Source: a virus
Lineage: Duplodnaviria > Heunggongvirae > Uroviricota > Caudoviricetes
Direction: 5' to 3' (one strand)
IMG/VR virus record: IMGVR_UViG_2703718869_000003
Coordinates: 1 to 20,713 of that record
Length of the DNA stretch: 20,713 bases
Shown: positions 6,703-13,275 of the stretch, piece after piece
How positions within the stretch are numbered: position 1 is the stretch's first letter
Layout: every line of letters begins with the position of its first letter
Program-made: the position numbers and the translations under genes
Notes under the pieces: model-generated
Seen by the model: only the letters and a program-made list of their open reading frames with translations
Database searches by the model: none
What the model was told of the DNA's origin: nothing

Positions 6703-8172
6703 ATGCTTCAAAAGCTAGACGTCGCAGACAGCGTGCGTCGCGAGCTGTCTCCCCGTACCGCGCGTAAACACAAAGCTGAGTTCGGCCAGTTCATGACGCC
6801 TTCTGGCGTGGCCCGTTTTATGGCCTCCTTGTTTCCACCGAGCACAATGAAAACTTGCCGTCTACTGGACGCAGGCGCTGGTGTAGGCGCACTGTCTTGC
6901 GCCTTCCTCGACCGTTGGCTGGTTGGCGAGTTTGGCTTTGAGTCTGTCGAGGCAACAGCCTACGAAATAGACAAAAAGCTGTGTGGTCACCTTGCGAAGC
7001 ACTTAACCGGGTACAGGAGAGTGACGCCCCGCATCATCGAAGGGGATTATATTGAGCTGGCAACCGCCGAAGGTCTACAGGATCGAGGTTATACCCATGC
7101 AATACTTAATCCGCCTTACAAGAAGATCAATAGCCAGTCAGCCCACCGGCAGGCTCTTCGCACTGTCGGTATCGAGACGGTAAATCTGTATTCCGCCTTT
7201 GTTGCACTGGCTGTAGGTGAGGTTGCACCTGGCGGGCAGATAGTGGCCATAATCCCACGTAGTTTCTGCAACGGACCGTATTACCGTCCGTTCCGTAATT
7301 TCATACTTGAGCGGGCAGCAATCCGCCATATTCATTTGTTCGAATCACGTAGCAAAGCTTTCAGGGATGACGATGTGTTGCAGGAAAATATTATCATCCG
7401 CCTGGAGCGTGGAGGCCTTCAGGAGGCTGTTACAGTCACAACTTCGACCGATGATAGCTTTTTTGACCTGGTCACCTACGAACACCCATTTGACCAAATT
7501 GTGTACCCGGACGATTCGGAGCGGTTTATTCATGTGCCGACCACGCACGAGAAAAGCGCCATTGAGTTATCATCCGCCGTACAATGTTCGCTGGCTGATA
7601 TTGGCGTGAAGGTATCGACCGGACCGATAGTTGATTTCCGACTGAAAGCTCATTTGCGCAGCATGCCCGAAGAAGGAACTGTTCCCCTGATCTACCCGAG
7701 CCATTTGAGTATGAGTAGCACTGTCTGGCCTGTGGAAGGTTTGAAGAAACCCAACGCAATCATGCGCAACGACGAGACAGAAAAGTGGCTTTACCCGAAC
7801 GGTTTTTATTGTGTGGTGCGTCGTTTCTCGTCGAAGGAGGAAAAGCGCCGAGTGGTAGCAAGCGTCGTTGATCCTGCTACCTTCAGTGAGTATTCAGTGT
7901 TGGGATTTGAAAATCACATGAACGTGTTTCATGAGAACAAACATGGGTTACCCGAGGCGCTGGCCCGTGGCTTGGCCGTGTTCCTGAACACTACCGCAGT
8001 GGATAAGTATTTCCGTCGATTCAACGGGCATACACAGGTCAATGCAACCGACCTCAAGATGATTAAGTACCCAAGCCGTGACACTCTGATAGAGCTTGGC
8101 AAGTGGGCTATGCAACAAGAAACTCTCACGCAAGAACATATTGACGCTAAGCTAGGAGCTCTGACTGCATGA
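6703..8172 (+). CDS. N6-adenine DNA methyltransferase (NPPY class); putative M subunit of a PstI/BsuBI-like type II restriction-modification system
   Basis: FxTP motif (FGQFMTPSGVARFM), AdoMet-binding LLDAGAGVGAL, catalytic NPPY (HAILNPPYKK). 489 aa, about the size I recall for M.PstI/M.BsuBI. AAGAGG ribosome-binding site. Confidence 0.85.
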   Translation: MLQKLDVADSVRRELSPRTARKHKAEFGQFMTPSGVARFMASLFPPSTMKTCRLLDAGAGVGALSCAFLDRWLVGEFGFESVEATAYEIDKKLCGHLAKHLTGYRRVTPRIIEGDYIELATAEGLQDRGYTHAILNPPYKKINSQSAHRQALRTVGIETVNLYSAFVALAVGEVAPGGQIVAIIPRSFCNGPYYRPFRNFILERAAIRHIHLFESRSKAFRDDDVLQENIIIRLERGGLQEAVTVTTSTDDSFFDLVTYEHPFDQIVYPDDSERFIHVPTTHEKSAIELSSAVQCSLADIGVKVSTGPIVDFRLKAHLRSMPEEGTVPLIYPSHLSMSSTVWPVEGLKKPNAIMRNDETEKWLYPNGFYCVVRRFSSKEEKRRVVASVVDPATFSEYSVLGFENHMNVFHENKHGLPEALARGLAVFLNTTAVDKYFRRFNGHTQVNATDLKMIKYPSRDTLIELGKWAMQQETLTQEHIDAKLGALTA

Positions 8173-9122
8173 ACAACCAAAATGATTATATTGAGGCCGC
8201 TCAGCAAATTATAGCATCCTTAGGCCTGCCCAGAGCGCAGCAGAATGAGCGTTCTGCTTTGTGTTTGCTGGCACTCCTGAACCTCACACCGGGAAAAGCA
8301 TGGGCCAACGCGGAAAATCCGCTTGTGGGCATTACACCAATCATGAATTGGGTTCGGGAGCACTACGGCAAGGTCTACGCACCCAATACTCGTGAGACAT
8401 TCCGCCGCCAGTCTATGCATCAGTTCTGCGCTGCTGGAGTAGCCCTCTACAATCCGGACAAGCCCGATCGCCCAGTGAACAGCCCGAAGGCTGTTTATCA
8501 GATCGAACCTGCTGCTCTGTCCATGCTACGCACTTTCGGCAGCCCGGCATGGCACGATAGCCTTGCAACCTATTTAGCCGAGCGTGAAACGCTGGTTACC
8601 CGCTATGCTAAGGAGCGCGAACAGAATCGTATCCCTGTTGAAATTGCTGCGGGCCAGCAAATAACCCTCAGTCCCGGCGAGCACAGCGAACTTATCCGTG
8701 CCATAATAGAGGACTTCGCCCCACGTTTTGCTCCGGGTAGCGTGCTGGTCTATGCTGGCGACACTGGCGAAAAGTGGGGCTACTTCGACGCTCCACTGCT
8801 GGCCGGGCTAGGTGTTGATGTGGATTCACACGGTAAAATGCCAGATGTGGTGCTACATTTTACTGCGAAAAACTGGCTGCTACTGGTTGAGTCTGTCACC
8901 AGTCATGGACCGGTTGATGGGAAGCGGCATGCTGAGCTTGCCAGGCTGTTTGCCGGATCAACAGCCGGACTTGTCTATGTGACCGCTTTTCCAAATCGCT
9001 CCATCATGGGACGATATCTTGGTGAAATCGCATGGGAAACAGAGGTATGGGTGGCTGATGCACCTTCTCATCTTATTCACTTCAACGGAGTACGATTTCT
9101 TGGCCCCTACTCTACTGAATGA
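8169..9122 (+). CDS. Putative type II restriction endonuclease, BsuBI/PstI family (assignment by size, synteny and motif; not verified)
   Basis: 317 aa. Start overlaps the methyltransferase stop (ATGA). Contains a PD...E-like segment (GKMPDVVLHF...NWLLLVESVTSHG). Followed by an intrinsic terminator. Confidence 0.55.
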   Translation: MNNQNDYIEAAQQIIASLGLPRAQQNERSALCLLALLNLTPGKAWANAENPLVGITPIMNWVREHYGKVYAPNTRETFRRQSMHQFCAAGVALYNPDKPDRPVNSPKAVYQIEPAALSMLRTFGSPAWHDSLATYLAERETLVTRYAKEREQNRIPVEIAAGQQITLSPGEHSELIRAIIEDFAPRFAPGSVLVYAGDTGEKWGYFDAPLLAGLGVDVDSHGKMPDVVLHFTAKNWLLLVESVTSHGPVDGKRHAELARLFAGSTAGLVYVTAFPNRSIMGRYLGEIAWETEVWVADAPSHLIHFNGVRFLGPYSTE

Positions 9123-9249: not shown

Positions 9250-9293
9250 TAACCACCAACGGTATTTACACAAAAATCACCGCAAGTTATATT
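9250..9293 (+). promoter_or_regulatory. pL-like promoter with overlapping oL-like operators
   Basis: -35 TTTACA (9265-9270), 17-bp spacer, -10 TATATT (9288-9293). The spacer contains AATCACCGCAAGTTAT, a lambda-operator-like half-site; an upstream ATAACCACCAACGGTAT is a second candidate. Confidence 0.5.
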
Positions 9294-9372
9294 TATTTCA
9301 AGCCAGAAACATCGCGCCCTTACACAGGGCTACATAAATCAGTCGTACGGCGCGACTTAACCCGCCGCAAAA

Positions 9373-9385
9373 TGCTCTTTAACAA
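9373..9385 (+). promoter_or_regulatory. boxA-like element (TGCTCTTTAACAA), identical to the E. coli rrn boxA core as I recall it
   Basis: Exact string about 80 nt downstream of the putative pL start; possible nutL-type or rrn-type antitermination site. Confidence 0.4.
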
Positions 9386-9689
9386 TCTGGAGCTTTACAG
9401 CGTCAATGACCTGTTTAGACCCCTACACGTAAACGTGCTGTATCATCGGGTGCGATCCGGTCGATGAGAGAGTATCCCCGCGCGAGAGCGAGAACGGCGT
9501 GAGAACGGGCAACACTGGCAGGAAGTTGGCGCTGACCAATACAGGGAAGGTTTTGGGGTGCAGGCAGCACCGCCAAAGCATTTCCGAGAAAGGATGGTAT
9601 TGACTGCGTGTGATGTCGGGGCTATATTTGGCGAACACCTCATAAAACGGGTGTCGGGATTAGGACCCCGCTGACAATCGAGGCGATAC

Positions 9690-9711
9690 AGACGCGCTAG
9701 CGTCTTTTTTT
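9690..9711 (+). terminator. Rho-independent terminator (tL-like) in the pL leader
   Basis: Stem AGACGC / GCGTCT with GCTA loop, followed by a run of 7 T. Confidence 0.7.
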
Positions 9712-9876
9712 GTATCGACATGCACGCACATCTTATCAATGGTGGGCTGTATGGGGCCGACTTCGGTCGGGCTGGTTCCCTTGATTGCCAGTAGTCCTAA
9801 CCCTGTACAGTCCACCGCCAGCGAGTTTAGGACCTCCGGCGGTGGTTATCAATCACCAATCAAGGAGGCTGCCACC

Positions 9877-10521
9877 ATGGCTACTATATCTCCCCTTTCT
9901 CGCCCATCCGTAACTATTGAAAACGGCAATGCCATCACTACGTCAATTGACATCGCAGAGTTCTTTGAGAAGCAGCATCACCATGTTGTTCAGAAAATAG
10001 AATCCCTTGAATGCTCTGAACAATTCTTAACCAGCAACTTTTCGCGGGTTAAATTCGAACACCGGGGTAATACCTATAACGCCTATCAAATCACCAAAAA
10101 CGGCTTCGTCTTCCTGGTGATGGGCTTCACTGGTAAAAAAGCCGCCGCTTTCAAAGAAGCCTACATCGCTGAATTCGATCGCATGGAAAAACAGCTATGG
10201 GAACAGAAACAACTGGCCCTGTCTTCTCCTGCGATGAATATCAATTTCCCTTTGTCGTGGTTTTCTGAGCATCACCCCTACGCCACGATGAATTATGTTG
10301 ATCGAAAAACATTGCAGCTTGATACCTCCGTCTTATTCGACATGCCAAGCCCTGCAATGCGCATATTTAATGAATTACGTCGCAACGGCTATAACGTTGA
10401 CGCCGCTGTCGCTGAATTTAACGCCTTCAAACATCTGACGGAAGAAATGCGCCGTACACTACAGGATATTTCAAGATTGTCAGATCAAAATGCCCGAAAA
10501 GGCTTCTCTGTAAGCCTCTAA
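9877..10521 (+). CDS. Rha-family phage regulatory protein / antirepressor-like, with a C-terminal domain shared with the next gene
   Basis: Start chosen at the ATG at 9877 (AAGGAGG 8 nt upstream) rather than the ORF-track start at 9739. N-terminal region ITTSIDIAEFFEKQHHHVVQKIE...YQITKNGFVFLVMGF resembles the Rha family from memory. Confidence 0.75.
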   Translation: MATISPLSRPSVTIENGNAITTSIDIAEFFEKQHHHVVQKIESLECSEQFLTSNFSRVKFEHRGNTYNAYQITKNGFVFLVMGFTGKKAAAFKEAYIAEFDRMEKQLWEQKQLALSSPAMNINFPLSWFSEHHPYATMNYVDRKTLQLDTSVLFDMPSPAMRIFNELRRNGYNVDAAVAEFNAFKHLTEEMRRTLQDISRLSDQNARKGFSVSL

Positions 10522-10559
10522 AGAACTAATAGTTTGACAAAGAACTAATAGTTTGACAA
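10522..10559 (+). repeat. Perfect 19-bp tandem direct repeat (AGAACTAATAGTTTGACAA x2), each copy with a TTGACA hexamer
   Basis: Seen directly, immediately after the Rha-like stop codon. Confidence 0.8.
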
Positions 10560-10608
10560 TGCCGCAGCGCTTATCGCATACTGACCGCACTACAACGTCA
10601 GCGGTCAA

Positions 10609-10637
10609 CCGCACCCGATAGCTTTGCGGCTTTTTTA
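10609..10637 (+). terminator. Candidate intrinsic terminator (stem CCGCA / TGCGG, then CTTTTTTAT)
   Basis: Seen directly about 50 bp downstream of the tandem repeat. The stem is short (5 bp) with an 11-nt loop. Confidence 0.45.
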
Positions 10638-10790
10638 TGCCTGTTCACAGGTATCGCCATATCAATGGCGGGTCGAGAGAGCCTAATACAACACCCTTTC
10701 GGGAAATACGCTCCGCCGTCTGACGCGGTAGTTGAAGCCCGCCACCCCACTAAGGTGGCAGTCAATACTAAAACGTCAGGAGTCATGATT

Positions 10791-11429
10791 ATGGCTAATC
10801 AACTCATCCCCGTATTCAACGGCACCATATCCAACGAAACAACTCTTTTAGTTAACGCTCGTGATCTACATTCTTTTCTTGGTGTGGGCAGAATGTTCGC
10901 GCACTGGGTTAAAGAGCGCATTGCTGAATATGGATTCGTTGAAAGCCAGGACTATATTTTGATTTGCCAAAATGGGCAAACCAAAGGTCGAGGAGGTAAT
11001 CGCCGTAGCAAGGACTACCACCTAACTCTCGACACAGCCAAAGAGCTGGCAATGGTTGAGCGCAACGAAAAAGGCCGCCAGATACGCCGCTACTTCATTG
11101 AGTGCGAGAAAAAGTTTCGCCAGAGTCTTTTACCTACACCAATGAACATCAACTACCCTCTCTCGTGGTTCTCAGATAACCATCCCTACGCCACGATGAA
11201 CTATGTTGATCGCAAGGTTATCAGCCTTGATGCTTCCGTGCTCTTCGATATGCCAAGCCCAACTATGCGCATCCTCAACGAGCTACACAGCAAGGGCTAT
11301 AACGTCGATGCAGCTGTCGCCGAATTTAACGCCTTCAAGCATCTGACGGAAGAAATGCGCCGTAAATTGCTGGATATTTCCCGCACATCGGAAAAGTCTT
11401 CCCGCTTTGGTTTCAACGTAAATCTTTAA
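10791..11429 (+). CDS. AntA/AntB-type antirepressor-like protein, with the same C-terminal domain as the Rha-like gene
   Basis: Start at 10791 (AGGAG 8 nt upstream). N-terminal LIPVFNGTISNETTLLVNARDLHSFLGV...QDYILICQNGQTKGRGGNRRSKDYHLTLDTAKELAMVERNEKGRQIRRYFIECEK resembles AntA-type antirepressors from memory. The C-terminal 95 aa is a paralogue of the Rha-like C-terminus. Confidence 0.75.
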   Translation: MANQLIPVFNGTISNETTLLVNARDLHSFLGVGRMFAHWVKERIAEYGFVESQDYILICQNGQTKGRGGNRRSKDYHLTLDTAKELAMVERNEKGRQIRRYFIECEKKFRQSLLPTPMNINYPLSWFSDNHPYATMNYVDRKVISLDASVLFDMPSPTMRILNELHSKGYNVDAAVAEFNAFKHLTEEMRRKLLDISRTSEKSSRFGFNVNL

Positions 11430-11499
11430 TTAACCCCATCCCCGACCACATATCGGGGATTAAATAAAATATCTGGATTAATTAACCGGAGGATTTGTC

Positions 11500-11712
11500 A
11501 TGCTCAAACCTCACTACGGAACCGCATTAGTTTCTCGCGAGGACGTTAAACCCGGTACAGCAATTCTTTACAACGGGCGTTATTACATGGCGTCAGCGAA
11601 CGTTAATAATGCACTTTACGCACATTCACTGATTGAAAAAATTCGCATTATCTCAGATGCAATAGAAGTTTACCTGAACAATAAAGGACAACCGTTAATC
11701 TCACCAGCCTGA
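11500..11712 (+). CDS. Hypothetical small protein (early-left accessory gene)
   Basis: 70-aa ORF with GGAGG ribosome-binding site at 8-nt spacing. Confidence 0.55.
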   Translation: MLKPHYGTALVSREDVKPGTAILYNGRYYMASANVNNALYAHSLIEKIRIISDAIEVYLNNKGQPLISPA

Positions 11713-12324: not shown

Positions 12325-13275
12325 ATGTTCGATATCGTTGAATTTGTTAAGCAGCAGGAGCGCTTTTTCTGCGAGGCATTAACTGAACCGACGCTGACAT
12401 GGGCGAAGGAAAGTCAGTTTGCAATTCAGCAATTCCAGAAAAATGCCTTTCTGGCTGACACAGCACGGGCAAATCTGCCCAGCGCACAGAACGCTATCAT
12501 CAATGTTGCCGCCATCGGCATAACCCTGAACCCGGCCAGCAAGCTGGCGTATCTGGTCCCACGAAAAAAGGCTGTATGCCTGGATATCAGTTATATGGGG
12601 CTTCTGCATCTGGCACAGGTCACAGGAGCCATTCAGTGGGGGCAATGCAAACTTGTTTACGAGAAGGACATTTACGAGTCCAACGGTATTGACTGCGCCC
12701 CCACGCACAAATACAACCCATTCGTAGACAGGGGCGCACGCATTGGCGGTTATTGTGTCGTAAAAACATCCGAAGGCGACTATCTGACCGAAGAGATGAG
12801 CAACAGGGAAATCGAGGTCATCAGGGCGTGCAGCAAAGCCGGAAATAACGGAGGAAGTAGCCCGTGGGATAGCTTCCCCGACGAAATGGCCAGAAAAGCC
12901 ATTGTTAAGCGCGCCAGCAAATACTGGCCCCGTCGCGATCGCCTGGATACAGCTATCGACTACCTGAACACTCAGGCCGGTGAAGGTATCATCCTGAATG
13001 CTGATCACATCCCTGAGCGTGACGTCACTCCCGCATCAGATGAGATTATCAATGAGATCACTCAGGCAATCACCGAAATTAACAAGACATGGGATGACCT
13101 GCTTCCCTTATGTTCCAAAACATTCCGTCGCACGATTGCATCACATGAATATCTCAGTCAGGAAGAAGCTGTCAAAACGCTTGATTTTGTCAAAAAGAAA
13201 GCTGCCAGAAACAAGGCCACGGCGGAAGCGAAAATTCACGCCACCACGGAAAATAACAGCGAGGCCGTGTCATGA
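12325..13275 (+). CDS. recT: Single-strand annealing protein: RecT-family core with a lambda Bet (Red-beta)-like C-terminal domain
   Basis: Core motifs resemble RecT (…[16 protein letters not shown]…[14 protein letters not shown]). The C-terminal ~60 aa ([64 protein letters not shown]) parallels the lambda Bet C-terminus as I recall it. Start is ambiguous: ATG at 12325 or the upstream in-frame ATG at 12274. Confidence 0.8.

Follow-up and report, generated by a model that had tools for sequence, protein, structure and literature searches.

Tandem antirepressor-like cassettes with separate antisense-RNA leaders and a shared C-terminal domain in a lambdoid Escherichia coli prophage

We analysed a 20,713-nucleotide (nt) stretch of viral DNA (the window; IMG/VR record IMGVR_UViG_2703718869_000003, positions 1 to 20,713), which belongs to a lambdoid E. 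coli prophage of the P13374-like (O104:H4 Stx2a-phage) type. Two neighbouring genes on its + strand, here called gene 1 and gene 2, begin with different N-terminal modules, end in the same C-terminal domain of 95 amino acids (aa), and are each preceded by an RNA leader. They lie between a restriction-modification insert linked to cI and kil-gam-recT-exo, in the order cro, cI (helix-turn-helix and S24 peptidase domains), methylase and PstI-family endonuclease, gene 1, gene 2, kil, gamL, recT, exo. On balance we favour the reading, drawn from sequence comparison, that the locus consists of two antirepressor cassettes in tandem. An antisense RNA of its own would control each of them, and one Ant-like effector module would be common to both products. 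The window is 100% identical to prophages of bovine and human Shiga toxin-producing E. coli (STEC), among them E. coli E2855 and O111:H8 strains, and its cI matches that of P13374, the Stx2a phage of the O104:H4 outbreak, at 100% identity. The genes and the repeat that they share are as follows.

9877-10521, + strand: gene 1, with a Rha N-domain at about 9937-10191 and the shared C-domain, type 1, at 10234-10518
10791-11429, + strand: gene 2, with an AntA N-domain at about 10851-11066 and the shared C-domain, type 2, at 11142-11426
10234-10526, + strand: repeat copy 1, the C-domain DNA plus 5 nt beyond the stop codon
11142-11434, + strand: repeat copy 2, the second copy of the C-domain DNA

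Gene 1 is contained in an open reading frame (ORF) of 9739-10521, in which the ATG at 9877, 9 nt past AAGGAGG, is the likely start; gene 2 is contained in an ORF of 10665-11429 and is started by RefSeq at the ATG at 10791. A sequence-only reading of this DNA had assigned the two N-terminal modules to different types, Rha and AntA, and profile searches bear this out. Gene 1 matches Pfam Phage_pRha (PF09669) over aa 21-105 (E 4.9e-26, 91.6 bits against a cut-off of 29.9) and TIGR02681 (82.1 bits, cut-off 45.95), and gene 2 matches Pfam AntA (PF08346) over aa 22-93 (E 4.9e-28, 98 bits, cut-off 27). The Rha (9877-10191) and AntA (10791-11141) N-domains also coincide in the segment of phrog_63 and phrog_373 that they match (E-values of 1e-17 to 1e-25); the two modules may therefore be very distant kin within one superfamily.

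The C-terminal ~95 residues, which the same reading had called paralogous, are identical at 73 of 95 positions (77%) with no gaps (BLASTP E 5e-57), a likeness far above chance. The imperfect direct repeat of ~290 base pairs that it had described in the underlying DNA was also found, and we could refine its limits to those listed above. Between the copies 217 of 293 nt (74%) are identical, the longest perfect run is 25 nt, and the start-to-start offset is a constant 908 nt. Homology extends from the M of MNIN(F/Y)PLSW to a few bases past the stop codon; the flanks on either side of both copies are unrelated.

The RNA leaders, which begin 5' of the interval 9877-11429 that the sequence-only reading had taken in, were overlooked by it. 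They comprise the following elements.

9600-9628, + strand: promoter-like site, TTGACT-17-TATATT (10/12 in a consensus scan), ending 6 nt before the isrK match
9635-9710, + strand: IsrK-type short RNA (Rfam RF01394, 64.2 bits against a gathering score of 50, E 6e-12)
9735-9822, + strand: C4-type antisense RNA (Rfam RF01695, 78.9 bits, gathering score 45, E 3e-14, full-length model)
9827-9867, + strand: C4 leader targets, UUAGGAC at 9827-9833 and CAAUCAAGG at 9857-9865
10553-10582, + strand: promoter-like site of cassette 2, with the second TTGACA as its -35 box
10585-10637, + strand: short hairpin GACCGC..GCGGUC followed by a terminator-like hairpin CCGCA..UGCGG and a T-run (from sequence and fold)
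10667-10751, + strand: C4-like RNA of the Rfam sRNA-Xcc1 type (RF02221, 52.7 bits, gathering score 53, E 6e-8, full-length model)
10774-10782, + strand: target CGUCAG(G), with CGUCAG at 10774-10779, overlapping the gene 2 Shine-Dalgarno sequence CAGGAG
11438-11460, + strand: hairpin AUCCCCGA..UCGGGGAU after gene 2 (from sequence; not called by the terminator scan)

In cassette 1, the position of the promoter-like site relative to isrK corresponds to that of PisrK in Gifsy-1 (PMC4825925). The terminator scan placed an intrinsic terminator of IsrK at 9690-9705, followed by a T-run, and a more permissive Rfam scan gave a weak c4-a1b1 match overlapping isrK. The C4 RNA carries two antisense elements, CCUUGAUUG at 9779-9787 and GUCCUAA at 9794-9800, which form exact Watson-Crick stretches of 9 and 7 nt with the targets CAAUCAAGG and UUAGGAC, respectively. 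The first of these targets overlaps the gene 1 Shine-Dalgarno sequence AAGGAGG (9861-9867). IsrK holds decoys of both, UUAGGAC at 9660-9666 and CAAUCGAGG at 9675-9683, the latter with one G-U pair. Judged by these elements, the layout of cassette 1 is that of a1b1 / c4 / a2b2 in immI of phage P1.

Cassette 2 is introduced by a perfect tandem repeat of the 19-mer AAGAACTAATAGTTTGACA on the + strand (10521-10539 and 10540-10558), which starts at the last base of the gene 1 stop codon. The doubling puts two TTGACA -35 boxes before the cassette; in the related locus L002 and in P13374 the 19-mer is present as a single copy. The stretch 10585-10637 is the positional counterpart of IsrK, and its short hairpin presents a decoy target, CGUCAG, at 10596-10601. 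The hairpin and terminator are thus analogous to IsrK and are not recognised by the isrK model; P13374 antB1 is laid out alike and differs in its target sequence. We treated the sRNA-Xcc1 match, which came from the more permissive Rfam scan, as C4-like on the basis of its position and layout. Its antisense loop, CUGACG at 10720-10725, is complementary both to CGUCAG at the Shine-Dalgarno sequence and to the copy in the upstream hairpin, so that there is one pairing element of 6-7 nt. The hairpin at 11438-11460, after gene 2, is a possible weak terminator.

Both C4-type RNAs are crossed by in-frame upstream ORFs (9739-9876 and 10665-10790), which have their ATG at the 5' edge of the RNA, run for 42-46 codons and continue into the main gene. 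This is why RefSeq starts gene 1 at 9751, in frame across the C4 RNA, and RefSeq-style annotation of the gene is accordingly extended over an RNA. In Gifsy-1 (orf45) and in the ORF6N cassette there is a separate upstream ORF at the corresponding place, and in Shigella dysenteriae orf45 is fused to the downstream gene (PMC4825925). The fused ORF may have a role in translational coupling or may be an annotation artefact.

The same RNA families were found upstream of every homologous gene that we examined (in L002, L003, P13374 and Gifsy-1). Rha genes are preceded by isrK and C4, and anrP of Gifsy-1 by isrK, C4 and c4-a1b1. The leaders of AntA and ORF6N genes in other prophages are of the sRNA-Xcc1 type and score 65-80 bits (79.6 bits before an ORF6N gene, 65.4 bits before P13374 antB1). 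In P13374 (L005) the coding sequence annotated as 'antB2, anti-repressor' (12956-13102, 48 aa) coincides with the 79.6-bit sRNA-Xcc1 match at 12984-13067, and this overlap makes it probable that antB2 encodes no antirepressor and is instead an RNA gene or an upstream ORF of the leader.

Complementarity was assessed by searches for exact stretches, the energies of whole-RNA duplexes being too permissive to inform. Three-way covariation links loop, Shine-Dalgarno target and upstream decoy in the five cassettes compared, and we take it as good evidence for working antisense switches of differing specificity in both leaders. A survey of 73 cassette genes (from 60 IMG/VR loci together with the window, L002, L003 and L012) gave nine or more pairing sequences. 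Those of AntA cassettes are CTTCAAAG, GGACATAAAA, TCGAAA, CGTCAG (that of the window), CAGCAAG and CTTACAAG; ORF6N cassettes use CAAGTAG and GAAACC(A); and Rha cassettes use CAATCAAGG. We found no complementary stretch of 7 nt or longer between the cassette 1 RNA and the cassette 2 leader, or the reverse. Since the pairing sequences differ (CAAUCAAGG and UUAGGAC in cassette 1, CGUCAG in cassette 2), the two cassettes are probably switched independently.

No Pfam or NCBIfam model covers the last ~95 residues of the two proteins, and when 1.84 billion representative proteins were searched exhaustively with a profile, only 24 clusters emerged at E <= 1e-3. The named members are from E. coli, Salmonella, Citrobacter, Providencia, Halomonas and Pseudomonas oleovorans, all Gammaproteobacteria; a scan of GTDB genomes with the C-domain alignment A1 gave no confirmed locus. 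In partner proteins the domain lies at the C terminus, combined with eight Pfam families: KilA-N (5 proteins), Rha (4), ORF6N (3), Bro-N (2), Ash (2), AntA (1), P22_AR_N (1) and ORF6C (1). It also stands nearly alone in some proteins of 99-129 aa. A Paenibacillus phage Rha protein, which tblastn had seemed to align, was rejected as a relative of the C-domain; the likeness was confined to its N-domain.

The sole informative match in the PDB was chain E of 5d50 (phmmer E 0.0047). This chain is Ant, an experimentally characterised antirepressor of 86 aa from Salmonella phage SPC32H, whose structure was solved along with its repressor. The link is reciprocal among PHROG families: Ant, a member of phrog_450, also matches phrog_1760 and phrog_17980, which contain the C-domain, and the C-domain matches phrog_450 and phrog_15539. 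Ant alone aligned to the C-domain alignment with a probability of 87%, and comparison of the Ant and C-domain families (hhalign, A4 against A3) gave a probability of 95% and an E-value of 3.9e-8 over 47 columns. The aligned part corresponds to Ant residues 26-72 and takes in the invariant core S-x-x-M-x-(I/L)-L-x-E-L-x3-G-(Y/F)-x-V-x4-A-E-x2-A, which includes GY(N/D)V..A.AE..A. Fold comparison of Ant (5d50) with the C-domain gave no confirmation of the link. From these profile matches the core of the C-domain appears to be remotely, and in part, homologous to SPC32H Ant. The sequence-only reading had raised the objection that the shared region might prove a common, promiscuous domain with no link to repressor antagonism; this is not what we found, because the domain is rare, falls outside Pfam and NCBIfam, and has this remote link to Ant.

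The following scheme would account for the layout. In each cassette a predicted sigma-70 promoter would give a terminated short hairpin RNA with a decoy target (IsrK in cassette 1), and read-through transcripts would go on into the C4- or sRNA-Xcc1-type RNA, the second target over the Shine-Dalgarno sequence and the gene for a two-domain protein. By analogy with P1 immI and Gifsy-1 isrK, the C4-type RNA would pair with the Shine-Dalgarno region and leave the gene untranslated; accumulation of the short decoy RNA would then titrate the C4-type RNA and turn translation on. The product would be a winged-helix-type N-module (Rha or AntA) joined to the shared 95-aa Ant-like C-module. The C-module may bind and inactivate a phage repressor, leading to prophage induction, with the resident S24-type cI or the repressors of co-resident prophages as candidate targets, and the N-module would add localisation to DNA or to the target. 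The conserved core of the C-module may serve, in addition, as the crossover point at which N-modules are swapped along with their RNA leaders.

Experiments on relatives offer precedents for this scheme. Supplying IsrK in trans increases anrP translation ~140-fold in Gifsy-1, and expression of AnrP induces the prophage (PMC4825925); in P1/P7 the c4 RNA is reported to repress ant (Citron & Schuster 1990). The main rival to the antirepressor reading is that the proteins are DNA-binding transcription regulators in which the N-module is the active part and the C-domain merely a helical oligomerisation module, its likeness to Ant reflecting a multimerising helix pair. We regard this as possible, though on the unlikely side. 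RefSeq names the product of gene 1 'Rha family phage regulatory protein', many unrelated N-domains share the C-domain, as is typical of oligomerisation domains, and the match of both N-domains to the same phrog_63/phrog_373 segment is compatible with one DNA-binding superfamily. SPC32H Ant is itself reportedly a tetramer, according to work by Kim et al. in 2016. Ant, however, contains hardly anything beyond this module and suffices for antirepression (the 5d50 chain is named 'Anti-repressor protein'), and the stand-alone C-domain proteins of 99-129 aa also speak against a mere oligomerisation module. C4-type control, moreover, is a hallmark of the P1/P7 antirepressor genes and of the Gifsy-1 inducer AnrP.

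Several observations weigh against the two genes being antirepressor cassettes. The homology to Ant is limited to ~47 columns at 32% identity, and SPC32H Rep, the known partner of Ant, shows no similarity to the prophage cI. An antirepressor is also not obviously needed, because cI, with its helix-turn-helix and S24 peptidase domains, could in principle cleave itself. Searches near the cassette promoters found neither copies of the cI operators nor LexA boxes, and it is the absence of the latter that counts here. The cassette 2 RNA falls 0.3 bits under the Rfam gathering score, and its pairing element has just 6-7 nt. Finally, AnrP of Gifsy-1, which we tried and rejected as a protein homologue (BLASTP against gene 1, E 3.5), has the RNA leader alone in common with our genes and lacks the C-domain.

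A different role was also considered, in which the products act on the host as toxic or takeover proteins (growth inhibitors of the KilA/BRO kind, exclusion or anti-defence) and the antisense control keeps the toxin off in the lysogen. KilA-N and Bro-N are indeed among the partner N-modules, and the locus adjoins kil, amid early-left accessory genes. On IHF-deficient hosts the Rha protein of phi80 impairs growth. When the Gifsy-1 cascade is over-expressed, growth stops (PMC4825925), but this toxicity was traced to AntQ, downstream of AnrP, and not to AnrP itself (PMC4825925). The only detectable homologue of known function for the C-domain is, in addition, an antirepressor, and we hold a toxic role to be improbable.

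Among the closest known arrangements is the immI region of P1/P7 (c4 - icd - ant1/ant2). In both, two sets of targets flank a C4-family RNA, the distal set overlapping the ribosome-binding site, and the pairing sequences vary between alleles, as between P1 and P7. The RNA is transcribed together with the gene that follows it, which it represses in P1/P7 and would repress here; the AntA N-domain of gene 2 is named after the P7/P1 antirepressor. In our locus, however, an in-frame upstream ORF across the RNA takes the place of icd, the C-terminal part is the unannotated 95-aa module instead of KilAC/ANT, and the cassettes are in tandem with a terminated IsrK-type decoy RNA ahead of C4. Indeed, neither icd nor KilAC/ANT gave a match on either protein or between RNA and gene. 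Gifsy-1 isrK-orf45-anrP shares the order PisrK, IsrK with terminator, C4-type RNA (the orf45/STnc1160 region) and antirepressor-like gene (PMC4825925), as well as the Rfam matches to isrK, C4 and c4-a1b1, which in the window are confined to cassette 1. It differs in that AnrP belongs to the ORF6N proteins and has an unrelated C terminus and in that the locus, a single cassette with other pairing sequences, lies downstream of Q and not in the early-left region.

P22 Ant (P22_AR_N and P22_AR_C, with the sar antisense RNA, Arc and Mnt) is the archetype of antirepressors and is likewise under antisense-RNA control, although its antisense RNA is of another family. Neither window protein had a Pfam match to P22_AR_N or P22_AR_C. 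P22 Ant and Ant of Phi24B, which is of the P22_AR_C type (Fogg et al. 2011, PMC3064807), were both rejected as relatives; BLASTP and hhalign against P22 Ant were negative except for an 11-residue linker. This linker, LEGEF(I/L)GKQE, stands before P22_AR_C in P22 Ant (~191-201) and before the C-domain in distant KilA-N, Bro-N and ORF6N proteins of the family, and it may be a conserved joint for swaps of the C-module. Ant of SPC32H is controlled by LexA. As a member of the epsilon15 type (PDB 5d50; phrog_450) it is a stand-alone protein of 86 aa, whereas in the window the module is fused behind DNA-binding-type N-domains and would be gated by RNA.

Interchangeable N- and C-terminal modules are a feature that our genes share with the BRO, KilA-N, Rha, AntA and ORF6N phage regulators, among which domain shuffling was reportedly described by Iyer, Koonin and Aravind in 2002. 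In our case the C-module lies outside Pfam and NCBIfam, and the shuffling is seen at a single locus in one species. All the ingredients are thus already known, from P1 immI, Gifsy-1 isrK-anrP, the shuffled BRO/KilA/Rha/AntA proteins and SPC32H Ant. In the literature that we searched there was no description of the C-module as Ant-like, of its fusion behind DNA-binding heads, or of tandem cassettes with different RNA specificities and one effector domain.

The adjacency of the two genes raises the question of how they arose. Had a single gene been duplicated in tandem where it stood, with its N-terminal half then diverging fast or being replaced, this would fit their same strand, near-identical length and same cassette layout, and the N-domains may be very distant homologues. 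The C-domain copies, however, differ at 19, 11 and 44 sites in codon positions 1, 2 and 3, corresponding to nonsynonymous and synonymous divergences (dN and dS) of 0.17 and 1.6 and a dN/dS of 0.10, values that indicate old alleles under purifying selection and not a fresh duplication; the unrelated flanks also speak against one. Furthermore, the type-2 C-domain is found in other combinations: in other strains it follows, at this same locus, an ORF6N N-module with its own RNA leader, and in P13374 it stands behind AntA elsewhere in the genome. That phage has the same layout of the locus with an ORF6N-type second gene, and a third copy (antB1) lies near int; the second gene is therefore AntA in some strains and ORF6N in others. 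The tandem of Rha and AntA was present in only 7 of 5426 complete E. coli genomes, some copy being present in 698. Among the 60 IMG/VR loci single cassettes predominate (Rha 26, AntA 13, ORF6N 15) and tandems are few (Rha with ORF6N 3, Rha with AntA 1).

The C-domain itself is a mosaic of blocks exchanged across E. coli prophages. It has three variable blocks, separated by near-invariant stretches, and the combinations 1-1-1, 2-2-2, 1-2-2, 1-2-1 and 2-2-1 were all seen. The mosaicism and the many N-partners point to exchange between pre-existing, diverged alleles, and the pattern 1-1-1 / 2-2-2 recurs between loci, which does not favour the duplication reading. We consider tandem duplication very unlikely; judging from sequence divergence, the shared C-module instead seems to have arrived by modular recombination between diverged alleles. 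The word 'duplicated', which the sequence-only reading had applied to the domain, holds for the shared homology and not for a recent event in situ. Its proposal of combinatorial antirepressor evolution stands as far as the combining of modules is concerned, given the eight Pfam partners, the AntA/ORF6N swap and the patchwork C-domain; the antirepressor part of it is plausible on the homology to Ant.

Traces of recombination within the repeat are visible in other prophages. Four single-gene loci (L003 and L008-L010) are exactly 908 nt shorter than the tandem locus (905 nt in L010), and their C-domain is a hybrid, with the single-nucleotide differences of copy 1 up to about nt 60 and those of copy 2 from about nt 72; in L003 the copy-2 pattern continues into the downstream flank. 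The hybrid and the shortfall together indicate that recombination inside the repeat has occurred. A crossover in the 29-nt stretch 10276-10304, which has a single mismatch, is expected to give this product, and the reciprocal insertion could equally have given rise to the pair. The junction is the same in all four loci, which therefore perhaps derive from one old event. The suggestion that the repeat is a substrate for deletion is thus upheld as regards past recombination, deletion and insertion being indistinguishable in these data; with 74% identity and a longest run of 25 nt the repeat is a poor substrate. In any case, the exchange of modules among phages, crossover points included, can be followed clearly at this locus.

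The cassettes sit in the control region of prophages that carry the P13374 cI, in which induction governs toxin release. If the C-module binds repressors, a domain outside Pfam and NCBIfam would gain a function, the presence of two or three such genes in many STEC prophages would be explained, and RNA-coded, SOS-independent routes of induction, together with crosstalk between prophages, would be suggested. A more far-reaching version of the antirepressor reading, which we consider rather doubtful as a whole, would make the C-module a portable repressor-binding unit of the SPC32H-Ant kind, mounted on varied heads and acting in a two-input OR gate, with induction independent of RecA cleavage and an RNA crosstalk code among STEC prophages. 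In such a gate two RNA switches that do not cross-react would converge on one effector domain, and either might induce the O104:H4-type prophage or its co-residents. The pairing sequences found across the population would make up this code. Where two prophages share a code, the decoy or C4 RNAs of one would switch the antirepressor of the other, which would amount to a second, RNA-based immunity.

Other features of the region were noted. Past the cassettes, 11500-11712 contains a 70-aa ORF that other genomes annotate as a cell division inhibitor (Kil; WP_000917252.1); NZ_AP018796, a RefSeq record of identical sequence, leaves it unannotated. Upstream of the isrK promoter is ~340 nt of non-coding DNA (9287-9634), which is 99% identical in L003, whose cI is only 70% identical. 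It has no Rfam match, the fold of 9294-9634 is not significantly more stable than that of shuffled sequences (z -1.8), and no lambda-N-like gene was seen among the annotated genes of the region; the stretch could hold early-left control signals. On the - strand at 361-535 there is a match to the sok antitoxin RNA (Rfam RF01794, 118 bits), a hint of a toxin-antitoxin locus of the hok/sok type on the margin of the prophage replication region. Finally, 6703-9122, directly 3' of cI and at the position of rexAB in lambda, encodes an Eco57I-like methylase and a BsuBI/PstI-family endonuclease. In the heteroimmune relative L003 the same slot holds HicB, a Panacea-domain protein and a hypothetical protein, and from its gene content the slot looks like an exchangeable defence insert.

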